This document shows positions 4,535-56,412 of a stretch of 64,000 nt of DNA, piece after piece. The translations under genes and the position numbers were made by a program. Origin of the DNA: Candidatus Omnitrophota bacterium. Its GTDB lineage: Bacteria > Omnitrophota > Gorgyraeia > Gygaellales > Profunditerraquicolaceae. The stretch is from the NCBI GenBank assembly GCA_026387335.1, contig JAPLLX010000001.1, forward strand, positions 16,489-80,488, written 5' to 3'. Position 1 is the first letter of the stretch. Each line of letters starts with the position of its first letter. The notes below the pieces were generated by a model. The model was not told where the DNA came from and did not search any database. It saw nothing but the letters and a program-made list of their open reading frames with translations.

Positions 4535-4594
4535 TCAATGGCAATGTAGACAGTCTACGTAACTTACTGTAAATAATATTGTTACATAACAAAT

Positions 4595-5705: not shown

Positions 5706-5783
5706 TAGGGACGGTTCTCAACTCCAAGCTAAAGCGTCCCCTGCCAGGGGACACTTTAAGATTAGCTTGAGAACCGTCCCTAA
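5706..5783 (+). repeat. 78-bp nested-palindrome intergenic repeat element, copy 1 (17-bp outer inverted repeat AGGGACGGTTCTCAA... plus inner GCGTCCCC/GGGGACAC hairpin)
   Basis: Near-identical copies at 16118-16195 and 36151-36227. The outer arms TAGGGACGGTTCTCAAC / GCTTGAGAACCGTCCCTAA are reverse complements. Confidence 0.75.
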
Positions 5784-11540: not shown

Positions 11541-12433
11541 CTTTTTTATTTGCCGGCCAAGGCAGCCAATATGCGGGAATGGGAAAAGATTTATACGAAA
11601 ATTTTCCCGCAGCCCGGGCCATATTTGACCGGGCGCAAACCGTGTTAGGTTTTGACCTTAAACAGATCTGCTTTGAAGGCTCGGAAGAGCAACTTAAAAT
11701 AACCAAGATTTCTCAGCCGGCGATAGTTACGGTAAGTATTGCCGCTTACGAAGCCTTTAAATCCAAAAACAAAGTTACCCCGGCCTATATGGCGGGTTTG
11801 AGTTTAGGTGAATACAGCGCTTTAATCGCCTCCGGTAGCCTAGCTTTTGAGGATGGTATTCGGCTAATTAAGAGAAGAGGCGAGTTAATGGATGAAGCAG
11901 CGAAGAAATATCCGGGTAAAATGGCTGCTGTTTTGGATTTAGCGGTTGATAAGATTAAAGAGATTTGCCTGGTCAGCGGTGCTGAAATCGCCAATTTAAA
12001 TTGCCCGGGGCAGACTGTTATTTCCGGTAAAAGTGAAGCCATAGATAAAGCGGTTATTTTATGTACTGAGGCAGGCGCGAAAAGAGTGCTACCGCTGGAA
12101 GTCAGCGGAGCTTTTCATTCTTCTCTTATGTCTGAAGCCACGGAAGGCCTTAAGCAAGCGCTGGAGAAAACCAATATTACCAGCCCTTCTGTGCCGGTTA
12201 TAAGTAATTATACGGCTTGGCCTCAGGATAAAACCAGTCAAATTAAAGAAAATCTGGTTTATCAGGTGCGTTCTTCGGTAAGATGGGAAGATTCAATGCG
12301 TTTCATTCTTGCAAAAGGAGTTACGCAGTTTTACGAATTCGGCCCGGGCAAGGTCCTTAAAGGTTTGCTGCGTAAGATAGATTCTACTGCGCAGGTTACG
12401 AATATAGAGAAAAGCGCGGATATAGGGGGATAA
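11534..12433 (+). CDS. fabD: malonyl-CoA:ACP transacylase
   Basis: [14 protein letters not shown]...[10 protein letters not shown]: GHSxG-type active site. Confidence 0.9.
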
Positions 12434-13202: not shown

Positions 13203-13442
13203 ATGGCAGTTCAAGAGAAGGTTAAGTCTATAATCGCGGAACAGTTAGGGGTAAAACCCGAAGAGGTCACTCCCGAGGCATCATTCGTGGATGATTTAGG
13301 GGCAGACTCTTTGGATACCGTAGAGTTGGTTATGGCATTAGAAGAGGAATTTGGCATTGAGATACCCGATGAGGATGCTGAGAAGATAGCCACTGTCGGC
13401 GATGCTATGAAGTATATTGAAGAAAAAAGCGCTAACAAATAA
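13203..13442 (+). CDS. acpP: acyl carrier protein
   Basis: [20 protein letters not shown]: phosphopantetheine attachment Ser motif. Confidence 0.9.
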
Positions 13443-13468
13443 TAATTTATATAGATAAGCCGCAAAAT

Positions 13469-13501
13469 ACCCCGCTATTTCTATTTAGCGGGGTAAGTTT
13501 T
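13469..13501 (+). terminator. putative partial terminator / attenuating hairpin between acpP and fabF
   Basis: 9-bp stem accccgcta/tagcggggt, 8-nt loop, short T-run. Confidence 0.35.
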
Positions 13502-13543
13502 AAATGAGGACATAAGTCTCAAGTTAAGTGTCCATATTAAAAT

Positions 13544-14791
13544 ATGCATGAAAACAGAGTAGTAATCACGGGGTTAGGGATAATTTCTTCGGTAGGCAAT
13601 GATGTCGCTACTTTTTGGCAGGCATTAAAGGAGGGGAAGAGCGGCGTAGGGCCATTAACCACCTTTGACGCTAGCAAGTTTGATTCGCGCGTTGCCGGAG
13701 AAGTAAAAGGTTTTAACCCGGCTTTAGGCGATATAGATTTTAAGGAAGCCCGGCGCACCGCTAGGTTTGTCCAATATGCCTTGGTTGCGGCTAAGCAGGC
13801 TATAGTTTCTTCAGGTTTGGATCTGGATAAGGGGAATAAAGAGAGGTTTGGAGTATTAATCGGTTCAGGTATAGGCAGCCTGCATACAATAGAAGAGGAG
13901 CATAAGATCTTCTTAACTAAAGGGCCATCGCGCCTGTCGCCTTTTCTAATTCCCATGTTGATTGTTAATGAAGCCAGCGGTTTAGTGGCGATTAAATATG
14001 GTTTTAAAGGCCCTAATTCCTGCGTGGCTACTGCTTGCGCTTCCGGCTCGCATGCCATAGGGGATGCGTTCAGGATCATAGAGCGCGGGGATGCTGATGT
14101 AATGATTACCGGAGGGACGGAAAGCTGTATTGTGGCTACGTCTCTGGGAGGATTCTGCGCCTTAAAGGCGCTTTCTAAGAAAAATGATTTTCCGCAAAAG
14201 GCATCCCGGCCGTTTGACAAAGAGCGGGATGGCTTTGTTATGGCCGAAGGTTGCGGTTTAGTGGTTCTGGAGAGTTTAGAGCATGCCAAAAAACGCAATG
14301 CTCCTATCATCGCTGAAATTATCGGTTTTGGGATGACCTGCGACGCGTATCATATAACCGCTCCTGACCCTGAAGGCGAAGGTGCCGGACGGGCGATGAA
14401 ATTGGCTTTGGCCGATGCTAGACTTAATCCCGAAGACGTGGATTATATTAACGCGCACGGTACTTCCACTAAACTTAATGATAAGATTGAGACCTTTTCC
14501 ATGAAGAGGGCTTTTGGAGCTCATGCCAAGAAAGTTATGGTTTCTTCAACTAAATCCATGATCGGCCATGCCTTGGGCGCTGCCGGTGGAATGGAATTTG
14601 TGGTTTGTTGTTTGAGTATCAGAGACGGCATAGTGCATCCCACGATAAACTATGAACATCCTGATCCTGAATGTGATCTGGATTATGTCCCCAATGTTTC
14701 CCGCAAGGCCGAGGTCAAAGTTTGTATGTCCAATTCTTTAGGTTTTGGCGGACACAATGCCTCCCTCATTGTAAAGAAATTCGATAAATAG
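13544..14791 (+). CDS. fabF: 3-oxoacyl-ACP synthase II
   Basis: Active-site Cys (ATACASGSHAIG), HAT/NAHGTST and GHxLGAAG motifs. 415 aa. Confidence 0.9.
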   Translation: MHENRVVITGLGIISSVGNDVATFWQALKEGKSGVGPLTTFDASKFDSRVAGEVKGFNPALGDIDFKEARRTARFVQYALVAAKQAIVSSGLDLDKGNKERFGVLIGSGIGSLHTIEEEHKIFLTKGPSRLSPFLIPMLIVNEASGLVAIKYGFKGPNSCVATACASGSHAIGDAFRIIERGDADVMITGGTESCIVATSLGGFCALKALSKKNDFPQKASRPFDKERDGFVMAEGCGLVVLESLEHAKKRNAPIIAEIIGFGMTCDAYHITAPDPEGEGAGRAMKLALADARLNPEDVDYINAHGTSTKLNDKIETFSMKRAFGAHAKKVMVSSTKSMIGHALGAAGGMEFVVCCLSIRDGIVHPTINYEHPDPECDLDYVPNVSRKAEVKVCMSNSLGFGGHNASLIVKKFDK

Positions 14792-14848
14792 GGACAGCGA
14801 CCATTTTTCTTGGTCGCATAGATAGAAAAATGGTCGCTGTCCCTATTT
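14786..14848 (+). repeat. perfect 23-bp inverted repeat (AAATAGGGACAGCGACCATTTTT / AAAAATGGTCGCTGTCCCTATTT) with 17-nt loop and downstream T-run; probable intrinsic terminator / REP-like element; the fabF TAG stop lies inside the left arm
   Basis: Arms at 14786-14808 and 14826-14848 are exact reverse complements, followed by ttatttt. Shares the TAGGGAC(A/G)G start with the 78-bp repeat family. Confidence 0.6.
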
Positions 14849-14851
14849 ATT

Positions 14852-16120
14852 TTGGATAATATGCCTTATACAATCGCAGAAAAAATATTAATGGCGCATA
14901 CCGGTAAGACCGATATTAAGCCGGGAGAATTTATTGAGGCCAATGTTGACATTGCCCTCGGAAATGATATTACCGCGCCTTTAGCGATCGAAGAATTTAA
15001 GAAATCCGGATTTAAGAACGTATTTGATAAAAACAAGATCGTTCTTGTGCCGGACCATTTTGCGCCGGCAAAAGATTTAAGGAGCGCGAATCAGTGTAAG
15101 ATATTAAGTAATTTTGCTGCTGAGCAGAAGATAAAAAATTATTTTGAAGTCGGCTGCATGGGGATAGAGCATGCGCTTCTGCCGGAGTTGGGTTTAGTCG
15201 GCCCGGGAGACCTGGTTATCGGCGCGGATTCACATACGTGTACCTACGGCGCGTTAGGGGCGTATTCCACGGGTATAGGTTCCACGGATTTAGCCCGCGC
15301 GTTTATTGACGGAAAATGCTGGTTTAAAGTTCCGGCTTCAGTTAAATTCATTTATAACGGCAAGCTGAATAAATGGGTCGGCGGCAAAGACCTGATTCTT
15401 TTTACTATCGGTAAAATCGGAGTGGACGGGGCATTGTATCAAGCTATGGAATTTTCCGGGCCGGTAATCCGGAAATTGAGCATGGATGACCGGTTTTCCA
15501 TGAGCAATATGGCTATTGAGGCCGGAGCGCGCGCAGGGATAATTGAGCCGGATGAGATCACCAAAAAATACGTCTCCCAATTTAAGCGGAAGTTTAAATT
15601 TTATCAATCCGATAGCGCTGCCCAATACGCTAAAATTTACGAGTGGGATGTGACGGATCTAGAGCCGCAGGTAGCTTGTCCGCATTTACCGAGCAATGTT
15701 CAGCCGGTAAGCGACTTAAAAGATGTTAAGCTGGATCAGGTGGTTATTGGTTCCTGCACTAACGGCAGGATCTCGGATTTAAGGGCCAGCGCCAAAATCC
15801 TTAAAGGGAAGAAAGTTAAACCCGGCTTAAGATTGATTGTAATTCCGGCTACTCAGAAGATTTATTTAGAGGCGGTGAAAGAGGGATTAGCCGAAATATT
15901 TGTTAAAGCCGGCGCAGTTTTCTCTACGCCGACCTGCGGGCCCTGCCTCGGAGGGCATATGGGTATTTTAACTGAAGGAGAAGTCGCCCTGGCCACTACT
16001 AACCGTAATTTTATCGGCAGAATGGGTAGTCCTAAGAGTTTTGTATATTTATCTAACCCTGTCGTGGCAGCAGCTTCGGCGATTACAGGCAGGATCACGC
16101 ATCCTAAGGAGATAAATTAG
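14852..16120 (+). CDS. leuC: 3-isopropylmalate dehydratase large subunit (short, archaeal-type LeuC)
   Basis: Aconitase-family Cys ligands (GSCTNGR, CGPCLG). 422 aa, followed by leuD. Confidence 0.9.
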   Translation: MDNMPYTIAEKILMAHTGKTDIKPGEFIEANVDIALGNDITAPLAIEEFKKSGFKNVFDKNKIVLVPDHFAPAKDLRSANQCKILSNFAAEQKIKNYFEVGCMGIEHALLPELGLVGPGDLVIGADSHTCTYGALGAYSTGIGSTDLARAFIDGKCWFKVPASVKFIYNGKLNKWVGGKDLILFTIGKIGVDGALYQAMEFSGPVIRKLSMDDRFSMSNMAIEAGARAGIIEPDEITKKYVSQFKRKFKFYQSDSAAQYAKIYEWDVTDLEPQVACPHLPSNVQPVSDLKDVKLDQVVIGSCTNGRISDLRASAKILKGKKVKPGLRLIVIPATQKIYLEAVKEGLAEIFVKAGAVFSTPTCGPCLGGHMGILTEGEVALATTNRNFIGRMGSPKSFVYLSNPVVAAASAITGRITHPKEIN

Positions 16121-16195
16121 GGACGGTTCTCAAGCCAAAGCAAAAGCGTCCCCGTTAAGGGGACAGTTTAAGATTAGCTTGAGAACCGTCCCTAA
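16118..16195 (+). repeat. 78-bp nested-palindrome repeat element, copy 2; its first 3 nt (TAG) are the leuC stop codon
   Basis: TAGGGACGGTTCTCAAGCCAAAGCAAAAGCGTCCCCGTTAAGGGGACAGTTTAAGATTAGCTTGAGAACCGTCCCTAA. The 17-bp outer arms are perfect reverse complements. Confidence 0.75.
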
Positions 16196-16203
16196 AAAAG
16201 AAT

Positions 16204-16695
16204 ATGATCATAAAAGGTAAAGTGCATAAATTCGGGGATGACATAAATACCGATGATATCATCTCGGCGAAATATCTTGTTTCTACTGACGCCAAAGAGT
16301 TGGGTGCGCATTGCCTGGAAGCAATAGCTCCGGATTTTGTGAAGAAGGTTACACCCGGAGATATAATCGTGGCGGGGAATAATTTTGGCTGCGGTTCGTC
16401 CCGCGAGCACGCGCCGGTAGCGATCAAAGGAGCGGGGATTCAGGCGGTTATTGCCAAAAGTTTTGCCGCGATTTTCTTCAGGAATGCCATAAATATAGGG
16501 TTACCCTTCCTAGAATCAGATGACGCGACAAAGATAAAAGAAGGGGATTTGATTGAAATAGACTTAGACGGTGGTATAATAAAAAACCTGACCCAAAATG
16601 TTACCTATAAGACTCAAGAATTCCCTGAATTTCTGCAGGCGCTGGTAAAAGAGGGCGGTTTGCTGAATTGGATCAAGGCAAAAAAGGAGCGCTAG
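16204..16695 (+). CDS. leuD: 3-isopropylmalate dehydratase small subunit
   Basis: KFGDDINTDDIISAKYL, GCGSSREHA: LeuD/aconitase swivel-domain motifs. Confidence 0.9.
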   Translation: MIIKGKVHKFGDDINTDDIISAKYLVSTDAKELGAHCLEAIAPDFVKKVTPGDIIVAGNNFGCGSSREHAPVAIKGAGIQAVIAKSFAAIFFRNAINIGLPFLESDDATKIKEGDLIEIDLDGGIIKNLTQNVTYKTQEFPEFLQALVKEGGLLNWIKAKKER

Positions 16696-32122: not shown

Positions 32123-32979
32123 TTGCTATTGTAACGCCATTTAGAAATGGCAAAGTTGATGAAAAGAAACTGCGGGAGCTCATTGATTTTCAGATTAAAA
32201 ACGGTTCCAGAGGGATTGTGCCTTGCGGGACAACCGGGGAGTCGGCTACTTTGTCTTTTGAGGAACATGAACGGGTAATTGAAATTACTATTGAGCAGGT
32301 CAATAAAAGAGTTCCGGTTATCGCCGGGACAGGCTCTAATTCTACGCAAGAGGCTATAATGTTAACTAAACAGGCGGCTAGTTCCGGAGCAGACGCGTCG
32401 TTACAGGTCTCTCCGTATTATAACCGTCCGACCCAAAAGGGCCTGTATGAACATTTTAAGGCCGTCGCGGATTCAGTTAAAATCCCGATCATTCTTTATA
32501 ATATTGCTGGTAGGACCGGGGTTAATATTGAGCCGGAGACAATCGCGAAGCTAGCTAATGATTGCAAAAATATCGTGGCAGTAAAAGAGGCATCGGGAAA
32601 TTTGGAGCAGATGTCGCGGATAAAAGCGCTCTGTCCCCCAAATTTCCAACTTACTTCCGGAGATGACGGACTGACGCTTCCGGTATTAAGTATCGGCGGA
32701 GTGGGGATAATCTCGGTAGTAGCCAATATTGTGCCGGCAGATGTGGCGAATTTAGTCAGCGCGTTTGAAAAAGGGGATATTAAGCAAGCGCAAAGCCTGC
32801 ATTATAAATTACTGCCGTTAGTCAAAGCCATTTTTATTGAAACTAATCCTATTCCGGTTAAGACCGCGTTGGGATTAATGGGTATGTGTGAGCCGGATTT
32901 ACGTCTACCGATGTGCGCGATGTCGGCTGATAATCTGGAGAAACTTAAAAAAGCCTTAAGGGATTACAGGCTTCTCTAA
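32104..32979 (+). CDS. dapA: 4-hydroxy-tetrahydrodipicolinate synthase
   Basis: GSIVAIVTPF, GTTGES, active-site Lys in VAVKEASG. Confidence 0.9.
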   Translation: MFKGSIVAIVTPFRNGKVDEKKLRELIDFQIKNGSRGIVPCGTTGESATLSFEEHERVIEITIEQVNKRVPVIAGTGSNSTQEAIMLTKQAASSGADASLQVSPYYNRPTQKGLYEHFKAVADSVKIPIILYNIAGRTGVNIEPETIAKLANDCKNIVAVKEASGNLEQMSRIKALCPPNFQLTSGDDGLTLPVLSIGGVGIISVVANIVPADVANLVSAFEKGDIKQAQSLHYKLLPLVKAIFIETNPIPVKTALGLMGMCEPDLRLPMCAMSADNLEKLKKALRDYRLL

Positions 32980-34920: not shown

Positions 34921-35322
34921 ATGGTAACTTGCTATCTAGGAGTTGGCTCAAACTTAGGCAATAGACGCAAGAACATCAAGGAAGCCGTTAGGAAAATAAA
35001 TTTGTTGAAAAACACAAGAGTATTAAAACAATCCCGGTTAATCCTCACAAATCCCGTCGGAGGCCCTGGCGGGCAGCCTAAATTTTTAAACGCGGCTTTT
35101 AAGATCAAGACCGGCCTTACGCCTTTTGGTCTTCTAAAAGCGCTGAAGAATATTGAAAAACAATTAGGCCGCCTAACTTCCGTTAGAAACGGTCCGCGCA
35201 AAATAGATTTGGATATCTTACTTTACGGGGATAAGATTATAGACCGCAAAGGGCTGATTATCCCTCATCCGCGCCTGTTCACCAGAGATTTTGTGATCAG
35301 GCCGTTAATAGAGGTAATATGA
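34921..35322 (+). CDS. folK: 2-amino-4-hydroxy-6-hydroxymethyldihydropteridine pyrophosphokinase
   Basis: YLGVGSNLGNR...KIDLDILLYGD..IPHPR: HPPK motifs. Confidence 0.8.
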   Translation: MVTCYLGVGSNLGNRRKNIKEAVRKINLLKNTRVLKQSRLILTNPVGGPGGQPKFLNAAFKIKTGLTPFGLLKALKNIEKQLGRLTSVRNGPRKIDLDILLYGDKIIDRKGLIIPHPRLFTRDFVIRPLIEVI

Positions 35323-36203
35323 AGATAATAAAAGCGCCGGATAAGTTGTTTAAAGATCTTAAAAAGTTTAAAATTTCCGGCAAGTCCATTGGTTTTGTCC
35401 CGACTATGGGCGCTTTACATGCCGGGCATTTAAGTTTAATTGCCCAAGCGCGCAAAGAGAATAAAATCGTGGTTGTAAGCATATTCGTAAACCCCAAGCA
35501 ATTCGGCCCTCAAGAAGACTTAAAGGTTTATCCCCGTCCGCTAAAAAAAGACCTGTTACTCTGTAAAAAAGAAAAAGTTGATTATGTTTTCCTTCCCGGA
35601 GCAAATGCTCTGTACGCCGAGGGTTTTTCCACTTATGTAGATGTTGAGGGTTTAAGCGCAGTGCTTTGTGGAAAGTCCCGCCCGGGACATTTTCGCGGCG
35701 TGGCCACGATAGTAACGAAGTTATTTAACCTTGTCCAACCGGATGTTGCTTATTTCGGGCAGAAAGACGCGCAACAGGCAAGCATCATCAAAAAAATGAC
35801 AAAAGACTTAAACTTTCCGGTTAAAATAAAAATTATGCCTACTCTGCGTGAAAAAGACGGTTTGGCCATGAGTTCAAGGAATGCGTATCTGGGGAAACAG
35901 GAGAGGAAAGATGCCTTGGTGTTATCCCGCGCGTTAAACTTAGCTAAAGTTTTAATCAGGGGAGGGGCTAAGGATACGGTTAGGATTATTAGCCGGATGA
36001 AACAGTTGATCAGCAAGAATAAAAACGCAAAGCTTGATTATATCGCTATTGTTGATTCAGAAAACCTAAAACCTCTTAAAATAATTTCCGGTAATTATTT
36101 GATTGCTTTAGCGCTAAATATTAAAAAGGTGCGTTTAATAGATAATTTTCAGGGACGGTTCTCAACTCAAAGCAAAAGTGTCCCCAATATGGGGACACTT
36201 TAA
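35319..36203 (+). CDS. panC: pantoate--beta-alanine ligase; the last ~17 codons are read from the 78-bp repeat
   Basis: FVPTMGALHAGHLSLI HxGH motif. 294 aa ORF ends inside repeat copy 3. Confidence 0.85.
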   Translation: MKIIKAPDKLFKDLKKFKISGKSIGFVPTMGALHAGHLSLIAQARKENKIVVVSIFVNPKQFGPQEDLKVYPRPLKKDLLLCKKEKVDYVFLPGANALYAEGFSTYVDVEGLSAVLCGKSRPGHFRGVATIVTKLFNLVQPDVAYFGQKDAQQASIIKKMTKDLNFPVKIKIMPTLREKDGLAMSSRNAYLGKQERKDALVLSRALNLAKVLIRGGAKDTVRIISRMKQLISKNKNAKLDYIAIVDSENLKPLKIISGNYLIALALNIKKVRLIDNFQGRFSTQSKSVPNMGTL

Positions 36204-36227
36204 GATTGGCTTGAGAACCGTCCCTAA
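36151..36227 (+). repeat. 78-bp nested-palindrome repeat element, copy 3 (overlaps panC 3' end)
   Basis: AGGGACGGTTCTCAACTCAAAGCAAAAGTGTCCCCAATATGGGGACACTTTAAGATTGGCTTGAGAACCGTCCCTAA. Inner 11-bp stem is perfect here (AAAGTGTCCCC/GGGGACACTTT). Confidence 0.75.
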
Positions 36228-37103: not shown

Positions 37104-37343
37104 ATGGCAGACAAAGTAATGAAAGTAGGAGTAAAGAGGGCGAAAGGTTATCTCTATTATATTGACAAACAGGGTGATGTCTCTTGCGCTAAGATGGCCA
37201 GAGGCTCTAAAAAGGGAGGTAGCCCCAAGAAGGTAGCGAAATGCGGTATCAAAAGAAAAGTAGGCTACCTTTATTTCTTGGATAAGAAGGGTGATGTTTC
37301 CTGCGCCAAGATGAAAAGAGGCGGGAAGAAGAAAAAGAGATAA
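37104..37343 (+). CDS. small (80 aa) highly basic protein made of two tandem ~35-aa repeats (KxGxKRxxGYLYxxDKxGDVSCAKMxRGxKK); function unknown
   Basis: ATG 37104 preceded by GAAGGGGGG RBS. Internal repeat visible at the protein level. Followed by a strong terminator. Confidence 0.45.
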   Translation: MADKVMKVGVKRAKGYLYYIDKQGDVSCAKMARGSKKGGSPKKVAKCGIKRKVGYLYFLDKKGDVSCAKMKRGGKKKKR

Positions 37344-55464: not shown

Positions 55465-55794
55465 ATGAATAAAAGAGCCTTGACCCTGCTGGAAATTATT
55501 GTTTCTACGATTATCCTGGCTTTAGTTATGACGGGGTTGATTAATGTCATTGTAGCCGGCAGGCAGCTCCTCCAGCATAGCCGTAACCGTATGGGTGCGG
55601 GAGAAATAGGAAAGAGGTTTATTGATCCCCTCCAGAATCAGGTAAGACAGGACACCTGGAGCAGCAGTTGTTTCGGCACGGATAGCCTGACTAATTCCAT
55701 CAGCGGTATGTATACCGCTTCATATACTATCAACACGCATCCTTCCGACGCGCAGATCAAGAAAGTAAAGACCAAAGTAAGCTGGACAGAATAA
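55465..55794 (+). CDS. minor pilin / pseudopilin-like protein
   Basis: MNKRA|LTLLEIIVSTIILALV prepilin-like N-terminus. ATG 55465 overlaps the preceding stop. Confidence 0.5.
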   Translation: MNKRALTLLEIIVSTIILALVMTGLINVIVAGRQLLQHSRNRMGAGEIGKRFIDPLQNQVRQDTWSSSCFGTDSLTNSISGMYTASYTINTHPSDAQIKKVKTKVSWTE

Positions 55795-56378
55795 TGCCTC
55801 TTTATTCCCGGAAATCAATCACCCTTATAGAATTATTAATTGCGATGGTTTTGCTGGCGGTAATAATCTTAGCTATTAATAATGTGAATGTCTTCAGCCG
55901 TTATCATTTTATCTCTACTGACCGCCGGGCAAAAATCCAGAATGACGCCTCCCGCTGCCTTGAGCATATAACCAAATATGCCTCTCAGGCAATAGGCAAT
56001 GAGGCTGTTTTCGGAGGGGCCTCTGCCGTATATGCCGGCACTAATGTCCTGTCTTTTTTTATGGATGTCAACGCTAATGGTTTAAGGGATACGGCGGGCG
56101 AGGATTATTGGGTTGGTTACAGGCTCAATAATTCAACTTATCAACTTGGCTATTGTAGCCATTGTAGCGACTATTCTTGTTCGACTTGTAGCAGCGCTAT
56201 AGAATACTTGGCTAATGATATAACTGTTTTTTCCGCTACTAATAATGGCAATTACGTGAACGCGGATATCACTGCTTGTTGGAACCCCGCGGGAACTATA
56301 GCGGCCTGCAATACTCCGGATAACCCCAGCGTTACAATGAATTCCAGTATCCACTTACCCTCTGTCGCCACCAATTAA
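55794..56378 (+). CDS. minor pilin / pseudopilin-like protein with Cys cluster (CSHCSDYSCSTC)
   Basis: RKS|ITLIELLIAMVLLAVII prepilin-like N-terminus with Ser at -1. 194 aa. Confidence 0.5.
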   Translation: MPLYSRKSITLIELLIAMVLLAVIILAINNVNVFSRYHFISTDRRAKIQNDASRCLEHITKYASQAIGNEAVFGGASAVYAGTNVLSFFMDVNANGLRDTAGEDYWVGYRLNNSTYQLGYCSHCSDYSCSTCSSAIEYLANDITVFSATNNGNYVNADITACWNPAGTIAACNTPDNPSVTMNSSIHLPSVATN

Positions 56379-56412
56379 ATAGGGACAGCGACCATTAATA
56401 TTGCCCCTATTT
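56377..56412 (+). repeat. degenerate/truncated copy of the 23-bp TAGGGACAGCGACCATT inverted-repeat element
   Basis: AAATAGGGACAGCGACCATT matches 20/20 of the left arm at 14786. Remnant right arm ttgcccctattt. Confidence 0.4.

Follow-up and report, generated by a model that had tools for sequence, protein, structure and literature searches.

The locus described here raises the question of whether a long palindrome between fabF and leuC regulates the leucine genes or arrived there by other means. It lies in a 64,000-nucleotide stretch of contig JAPLLX010000001.1 from a Candidatus Omnitrophota bacterium (positions 16,489 to 80,488 of the contig; hereafter the window, whose own numbering is used below, all features being on its + strand). 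The first-pass annotation, made from the letters of the sequence alone, had proposed that the palindrome could be a terminator or an attenuator, with a hint of a regulatory switch ahead of leuC. We conclude that it is very probably not a leucine switch but a recently inserted, non-autonomous element of the kind known as miniature inverted-repeat transposable elements (MITEs), made of two terminal inverted repeats (TIRs) set head to head and derived from a small mobile unit that encodes a Y1 transposase. We refer to this unit and its derivatives as family A, and to such pairs of TIRs as doublets.

The inverted repeat between the two genes is present and bigger than first noted: the 23-nt arms that had been claimed fall inside perfect arms of 27 nt, separated by a 13-nt loop. 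The left arm (14784..14810, ATAAATAGGGACAGCGACCATTTTTCT) is one copy of the family A TIR and the perfect complement of the right arm (14824..14850), an inversely oriented TIR whose end lies 11 nt before the likely leuC start, the ATG at 14862. The left arm includes the 18-mer ATAGGGACAGCGACCATT, found in other genomes on either side of Y1 transposase genes. The loop (14811..14823, TGGTCGCATAGAT) holds an extra, inverted piece of the TIR core, TGGTCGC. The fabF-like open reading frame (ORF; 13544-14791), which matches the Pfam domain ketoacyl-synt, terminates at a TAG codon (14789..14791) supplied by the element; this double use of the TAG within TAGGGAC as fabF stop had been overlooked. The RNA fold of the + strand reaches -48.1 kcal/mol (z = -10.6, none of 200 shuffles being as stable) and that of the - strand -43.7 kcal/mol. 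In its proportions the window copy is ordinary, with an arm of 27 nt and a loop of 13 nt compared with medians of 22 and 18 nt over 34 family A doublets. An independent assembly of the locus (L001, a Logan contig from SRR20698650) matched window positions 13410-14808, reproducing fabF at 100% and ending 20 nt into the left arm, at 14808.

The history of the junction could be read from relatives with and without the element. The closest of them is a sister strain (JGI Ga0247841_10000005, 704 kb, comprising our loci L132, L141 and L150) that is 95-98% identical to the window. At the 98%-identical locus L141 the element is absent and fabF ends in ...TTCACAGGGTAA; the junction there reads ...AAGTTCACAGGGTAATATTTAAACCTGGATAATATG, where the window has ...AAATTCGATAAATAGGG, the element, and then CCCTATTTATTTTGGATAATATG. 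The flank TGGATAATATG beside the right arm is common to the filled and empty alleles. The element is also absent from two more distant Omnitrophota with syntenic fab-leu genes (L010 and L039, about 76% identical), in which the fabF stop overlaps the leuC start (ATGA). These two carry instead a family A doublet after leuB, a place where the window has a gap of 2 nt. Because relatives, whether close or distant, lack the palindrome between fabF and leuC, we consider that it was recently inserted, and since the sister strain lacks it there, the element is polymorphic between strains about 2% apart. Comparison of the alleles indicates that the last codons and the stop of fabF were replaced by the element in the window strain. 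No duplicated TA was found in the comparisons of filled and empty sites.

We then scanned one genome per GTDB species for exact matches to the 18-mer ATAGGGACAGCGACCATT. It was recovered in at least 117 genome stretches, compared with about 17 chance matches predicted for an 18-mer of random sequence, and the carriers, more than 100 genomes with at least 14 phylum-level labels, showed it in unrelated contexts. Among the matches listed, the best represented groups were Omnitrophota (37 loci), Nitrospirota (22), Planctomycetota (14), Desulfobacterota-type bacteria (12) and Clostridia (8); further carriers were Elusimicrobia, Desantisbacteria, Aerophobetes, Chloroflexota, WOR-3 and others. Several of the matches were on contigs of 60-300 kb. 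Over 151 ends, conservation continued outside the 18-mer, with A at position -1 in 97% and at position -2 in 91%, so that the matches are not due to chance. On the inner side the 18-mer is followed by a run of T, giving a TIR of about 24 nt with the consensus WAAATAGGGACAGCGACCATTTWT; the bounding end of family A is WAAATAGGGACAGCGACC. In viral contigs the 18-mer was present in one only (L232, IMG/VR UViG 3300016469_000370, 12258-12275).

Ends in inverse orientation could be paired 51 times, and the pairs fell into three size classes, 41-70 bp (n=33), 125-269 bp (n=10) and 740-789 bp (n=8). The largest class revealed the nature of the family, as the 18-mer there bounds transposase units (L019, L026, L030 and L067) encoding proteins of 220-222 amino acids with the succession of motifs MPRIAR...NHVHF...HLWQGRF...RY(V/I)ENNP. 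A full unit, of about 745 bp, opens with a TIR, followed by a promoter-like TTGACA...TATAAT, the ORF starting with MPRIAR, its stop codon and, directly abutting this stop, the second TIR. Truncated genes between intact ends were found at L061, L035 and L021, and the existence of such units and of the 125-269-bp class links the full units to the doublets that lack a gene. Many genomes contain all of these forms side by side: complete units, units with internal deletions and doublets without a gene. One of these loci, L021, is on an 11-kb contig of a metagenome-assembled genome (MAG) labelled Aenigmatarchaeota, where a family A end is followed by a transposase pseudogene of 23 codons; it represents either a cross-domain transfer or mis-binning.

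The encoded proteins matched the Pfam profile Y1_Tnp above its cut-off (E 1e-15 to 1e-17) and came just under that of the NCBIfam profile REP_Tyr_transpos (74.5 bits, cut-off 80). The HUH motif, as NHVHF, and the catalytic tyrosine within a Y...NP motif, as RY(V/I)ENNP, were conserved. An AlphaFold2 model (pLDDT 89) had as its top fold match in the PDB 4ER8, the TnpA-REP protein with a hairpin of the repetitive extragenic palindrome (REP) type (E 1e-8), followed by the TnpA proteins of IS608 and ISDra2. A sequence search of the PDB with one of the proteins returned nothing at E <= 0.01, and the C-terminal 80 amino acids had no match to a Pfam helix-turn-helix domain. Motifs and predicted fold together identify the enzyme as a putative Y1/HUH tyrosine transposase of the clade of REP-associated tyrosine transposases (RAYTs), and more precisely of the TIRYT/TIRtron type, the name given to RAYT-like genes located between terminal inverted repeats (Di Nocera, De Gregorio & Rocco, 2013; PMC3733652). 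The five full-length family A proteins were only 54-68% identical to each other, so the end is much more conserved than the enzyme that it bounds.

To guard against the ascertainment bias of searching with the 18-mer, a second sample was drawn by searching with one transposase protein and ignoring the flanks. This search gave at least 7,817 clusters at E <= 1e-20, named 'transposase' or 'putative transposase' only. Four homologues (57-64% identity) had their genes between inverted ends with a GGGACAG core in 4/4 cases, with GGGACAGCGACC in three of them. Many of the transposase homologues were on contigs of 0.7-1.3 kb, that is, of about the size of the element.

In the 34 doublets of family A the spacing from arm to arm is 0-40 nt, and the loops vary from copy to copy, some being unrelated and some doublets having no loop at all; within the loops of two copies (L009 and L028) we found partial TIR fragments in direct orientation. 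Doublets at separate loci of the same genome could be near-identical, loops included (L041/L085 and L103a/b). Of the 34, 21 lie 0-30 nt downstream of a stop codon. Some doublets last over longer times, since three Omnitrophota species with 83-93% identity share one occupied intergenic site by vertical inheritance (L006 3330-3387, L068 465-524 and L082 1243-1302). At this site the arms were kept while the loop drifted, and after the doublet comes TGGTATAAT, which is an extended -10 motif and lies 7-9 nt upstream of the next ATG. A sequence resembling this motif, TGGATAAT, stands after the window copy, immediately upstream of the leuC ATG.

Small pieces of the end were also present just outside many elements, as a kind of stutter (AAATAGG, AAATAGGGA, AAATAGGGACAG; L013, L041, L055, L057, L058, L067, L070 and L094), and further end fragments were seen outside the elements at L010 (TAGGGACTGTCCCA) and L065 (GGACAGCTGTCCCTATTT). 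Some of the stutters are minimal palindromes, limited to the first 7-9 nt of the end. They may be traces of abortive or repeated cleavage and joining at the terminus.

The palindrome is not the only element of this kind in the window. The motif TAGGGAC(A/G)G occurs there 8 times, compared with 0.6 expected, and all 8 occurrences are at the ends of the palindrome, of three 78-bp repeats or of the copy at 56380. The first-pass annotation had tentatively grouped these elements into a small superfamily and had pointed out a decayed copy near 56377, and on both counts our results agree with it. The decayed copy is a real family A doublet (56373..56412) that comes directly after the stop of the last pilin-like ORF. 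Its left arm, AATTAAATAGGGACAGCGACCATT, is intact, positions 56373-96 matching the arm of the palindrome over 24 nt at 96%, and only the outer 8 nt of the right arm, CCCTATTT, are left (56405-12). The pilin-like ORF (55794-56378) terminates at the TAA of TAAATAGGG. As for the superfamily, the palindrome and the 78-bp repeats turned out to be TIR doublets of two homologous Y1 transposase units, the second of which we call family B.

Each 78-bp repeat consists of two TIRs of about 35 nt from this second Y1 transposase unit, in head-to-head arrangement, and its bounding end, TAGGGACGGTTCTCAAGC, was found in 113 metagenome stretches, mostly as doublets of 75-80 bp like the three of the window. At L230 the halves of about 35 nt bound a protein of 160 amino acids starting with MPRTAR, and related genes adjoin the same end at L164, L167, L203 and L209; the half that flanks these family B genes at the five loci is also half of the window doublet at 5706..5782. 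The family B protein is 35-41% identical to the family A enzyme (E 2e-32), and the ends of the two families have the terminal TAGGGAC(A/G)G in common, the right ends of family B often being CCCTG and not CCCTA. Both sets of repeats are accordingly the ends of homologous transposase units. The family A core was present within two family B loci (L182 and L199), so that both families occur on one contig, and none of the family A loci contained the family B core. Family B had zero matches in viral contigs; with a single viral match for family A, carriage by phages is thus not indicated.

Family B doublets have also modified the genes beside which they lie. The doublet in the leuC/leuD gap (16118..16194) provides the stop codon of leuC with its own TAG (16118-20) and is 9 nt upstream of the leuD start; it occupies the same site in the 98%-identical strain (L141). 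The third doublet (36150..36226), whose left end is CAGGGAC, is entered over 54 nt by the panC ORF (35319-36203), which gains in this way a tail of 18 codons past its Pfam domain, the Pantoate_ligase match stopping at residue 277 of 294. The elements of the window are 7-22 nt upstream of the next start codon. Like the palindrome, the 78-bp doublets are polymorphic between 98%-identical strains: L150 has an additional one (1056-1135) directly after a TAA, on a contig 97% identical to the window, which is empty at the corresponding position 32979|32980. This pair of filled and empty sites is clean, and no target duplication was visible in it.

By analogy with the biochemistry of the TnpA proteins of IS608 and ISDra2 and of E. 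coli TnpA-REP, a mechanism can be proposed for these doublets. A TIRYT enzyme, assumed to be encoded elsewhere in the genome, would act in trans on the element in single-stranded, hairpin-folded form and would cut and rejoin the DNA near the conserved end AAATAGGG. Template switching within the hairpin would then keep both arms identical. The inner arms are perfectly mirrored yet specific to each copy, a hint that fold-back (template-switch) synthesis may create the doublets or repair them.

Several observations weigh against the interpretation of the palindrome as a recently inserted derivative of a mobile Y1 unit, or at least against parts of it. A tblastn search of the 64-kb window with five TIRYT proteins detected no TIRYT gene. 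At the fabF-leuC junction the insertion is not the sole difference between the filled and empty alleles, since about 10-19 nt are changed as well, which makes the target site and the exact boundaries unreadable, and the choice between an insertion in the window strain and a loss in the sister strain is decided by the outgroups only. Many doublets of one genome have unrelated loops, a situation that fits less easily with the copying of one master element. The phylum breadth is taken from the labels of MAGs, some of them with short contigs for which mis-binning is possible, the sole archaeal case (L021) being an example. Finally, the cleavage sites, the strand specificity and the moving form of the element are predicted only, by analogy.

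The main rival explanation is that the palindrome evolved as a device parting fab from leu expression, either an intrinsic terminator, possibly active in both directions, or an attenuator, the small alternative hairpin serving as an anti-terminator switch. The transcript has indeed features that recall such a device. Its hairpin of -48 kcal/mol has a GC-rich core stem ending in GUCCC and followed by UAUUUAUUUU, with an A-tract upstream, as would be expected for a bidirectional terminator; the U-tract is partly paired with this A-tract in the minimum-energy fold. The location of 21 of the 34 doublets within 30 nt of a stop codon would also suit a terminator. The alternative 7-bp pairing noticed in the first-pass annotation does exist, between GCGACCA (14797-14803) and TGGTCGC (14811-14817), and at -12.5 kcal/mol it is the minimum-energy fold, hence the best fold of the nascent transcript, until the right arm is made. 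In the full-length ensemble the probability of this pair drops to about 4e-13, a negligible value at equilibrium, and a switch is not supported. The loops, moreover, differ between copies; the alternative pairing is peculiar to the window copy and, not being conserved, gives no backing to a regulatory switch.

The comparative data do not support an element evolved as a leuC switch: the junction is empty in the 98%-identical strain (L141) and in the two more distant relatives (L010 and L039), and the same arms are found in unrelated contexts in more than 100 genomes of at least 14 phylum-level groups. An Rfam scan of the whole window recovered one tRNA only, with no leader peptide at the site, and a promoter and terminator scan, whose counts were at the level of shuffled sequences, did not call the palindrome, its loop and stem being beyond the limits of the scan. 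The sister doublet between leuC and leuD, 9 nt ahead of leuD, argues in the same direction, because it separates two subunits of one enzyme, so that efficient termination would be costly and presumably harmful there. For these reasons we consider it unlikely that the palindrome evolved as a terminator or attenuator with a switch, and a conserved attenuator is ruled out by the lack of any Rfam match combined with the absence of the element at orthologous junctions. As a tolerated by-product of the insertion, the very stable mRNA hairpin may nevertheless dampen read-through or the translation of leuC.

Two other explanations were considered. The palindrome could be a MITE of a DDE transposon, for example of the IS630/Tc1-like kind that duplicates a TA target, in which case the target-site duplication would be seen as the TA of TAGGGAC...GTCCCTA. 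The small size, the TIRs, the intergenic position and the presence of TA on either side of the GGGAC...GTCCC core would all agree with this, but every full-length unit encodes a Y1/HUH enzyme and not a DDE one, the conservation continues beyond the TA into AAA (91-97%), the right ends of family B are often CCCTG, and no TA duplication was seen at filled and empty sites, which makes a DDE origin most improbable. Hardly any credence, and slightly less still, can be given to the palindrome being an operator, bound by a dimeric host regulator or nucleoid protein whose binding would have selected for its perfect symmetry. The perfect dyad, and the arms kept with a drifting loop at one orthologous site of three Omnitrophota species, are what such an operator would predict; against it, the distance between the arms ranges from 0 to 40 nt across copies, a unit with a transposase gene has this very sequence as its ends, and no regulator gene is consistently adjacent.

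We compared the two families with known systems. They are closest to TIRYT/TIRtron elements, with which they share a RAYT-like Y1/HUH gene placed between TIRs instead of REP hairpins, and dispersed families of these TIRs, often as dimers. Many TIRYT repeats carry the motif GGGGWSAS and they sometimes form dispersed, dimer-rich families (PMC3733652). The family A core, AGGGACAG, fits this motif at 7/8 positions, and in family B the outer end, with AGGGACGG, fits at 6/8 and the inner end, with GGGGACA[CG], at 8/8. Our elements differ from those described by a family A end that hardly varies between uncultivated anaerobes assigned to at least 14 phylum-level groups. TIRYTs have been tentatively equated with subclass 2.1 of TnpAY1 (Quentin et al., 2018; PMC6006769), whereas the motifs found here (NHVH, WQ and Y[VI]ENNP) are nearer to subclasses 2.4 and 2.7, and we leave the subclass open. 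The end sequence GGGACAGCGACC was found in no paper of the searchable full-text literature. The family therefore seems to be undescribed and unusually widespread, the kind of element itself being already known.

REPINs and RAYTs, reportedly described by Bertels and Rainey in 2011 and by Nunvar in 2010, resemble the present elements in that two inverted short repeats make a long intergenic hairpin, in the presence of a cognate Y1 gene between the same repeats, and in the predicted fold of the enzyme, which is nearest to E. coli TnpA-REP (4ER8). RAYTs are typically single-copy and domesticated. The units studied here are in contrast similar to insertion sequences (ISs), with truncated copies, tandem ends and contigs of about the length of the element; their loops vary freely, and their ends cross phyla instead of being specific to a lineage. 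Within the 24-nt unit AAATAGGGACAGCGACCATTTTT the only stem is AAAT/ATTT, and its head is ATAG/TAGGG, with no palindrome headed by GTAG. With the IS200/IS605 elements (IS608, ISDra2) the families have in common the HUH motif, the catalytic tyrosine and the Y1 fold, and probably, by analogy, the single-strand 'peel and paste' chemistry. Those elements have subterminal hairpins, no TIRs and a Y...Q motif, unlike the TIRs and the Y...NP motif (class 2 of Quentin) observed here. The doublets finally recall MITEs such as the Correia elements of Neisseria, as well as intergenic hairpins of the REP/ERIC type with effects on mRNA, which are also small, TIR-bounded and located between co-directional genes, form stable RNA hairpins and donate stop codons or C-terminal tails. 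Those MITEs rely on DDE enzymes and produce target duplications, and neither such an enzyme nor a duplication was seen in our data.

Three other features were observed in the window in the course of this work. A hairpin at 1237-1289, unrelated to the two families, has arms of 26 nt that are 88% complementary around a 1-nt loop (AATAGACAAAAAATCCCAGGCATGAA / TTTATGCTTGGGATTTTTTGTTTATT) and resembles an ordinary terminator. Direct repeats of 70 nt, 71% identical and 117 nt apart (GGTGATGT..TGCGC..AAGATG), at 37145-37214 and 37262-37331, probably reflect a duplication within a coding sequence. At 4535-4591 (57 nt) the sister strain has a different intergenic segment of about 110 nt (L132 334-443), from the preceding ORF to a dus-like gene.

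For the biology of this bacterium, the finding means that the hairpin ahead of leuC is to be understood as the insertion of a mobile element, which removes a tempting false lead, and the same account holds for the half copy beside the pilin genes as well as for the 78-bp repeats. Such insertions reshape a compact genome: the overlap of the fabF stop and the leuC start was broken, fabF and leuC were given new stop codons and panC a tail of 18 codons. The repeats probably also fragment metagenome assemblies, many contigs being no longer than the element. On a wider scale, we would put forward as a tentative proposal, short of regarding it as probable, that families A and B represent a still-active, IS-like branch of RAYTs, with an end of about 20 nt that stayed near-invariant while the enzyme diverged by about 45%, and with horizontal spread across at least 14 phyla of uncultivated anaerobes. 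In that case, they would form a bridge between selfish IS200-type elements and the 'domesticated' RAYT/REPIN systems, and would offer a tractable pair of enzyme and substrate for understanding how RAYT-type enzymes move repeats. In either case, the family provides a clean enzyme/DNA pair for the study of RAYT-type transposition.

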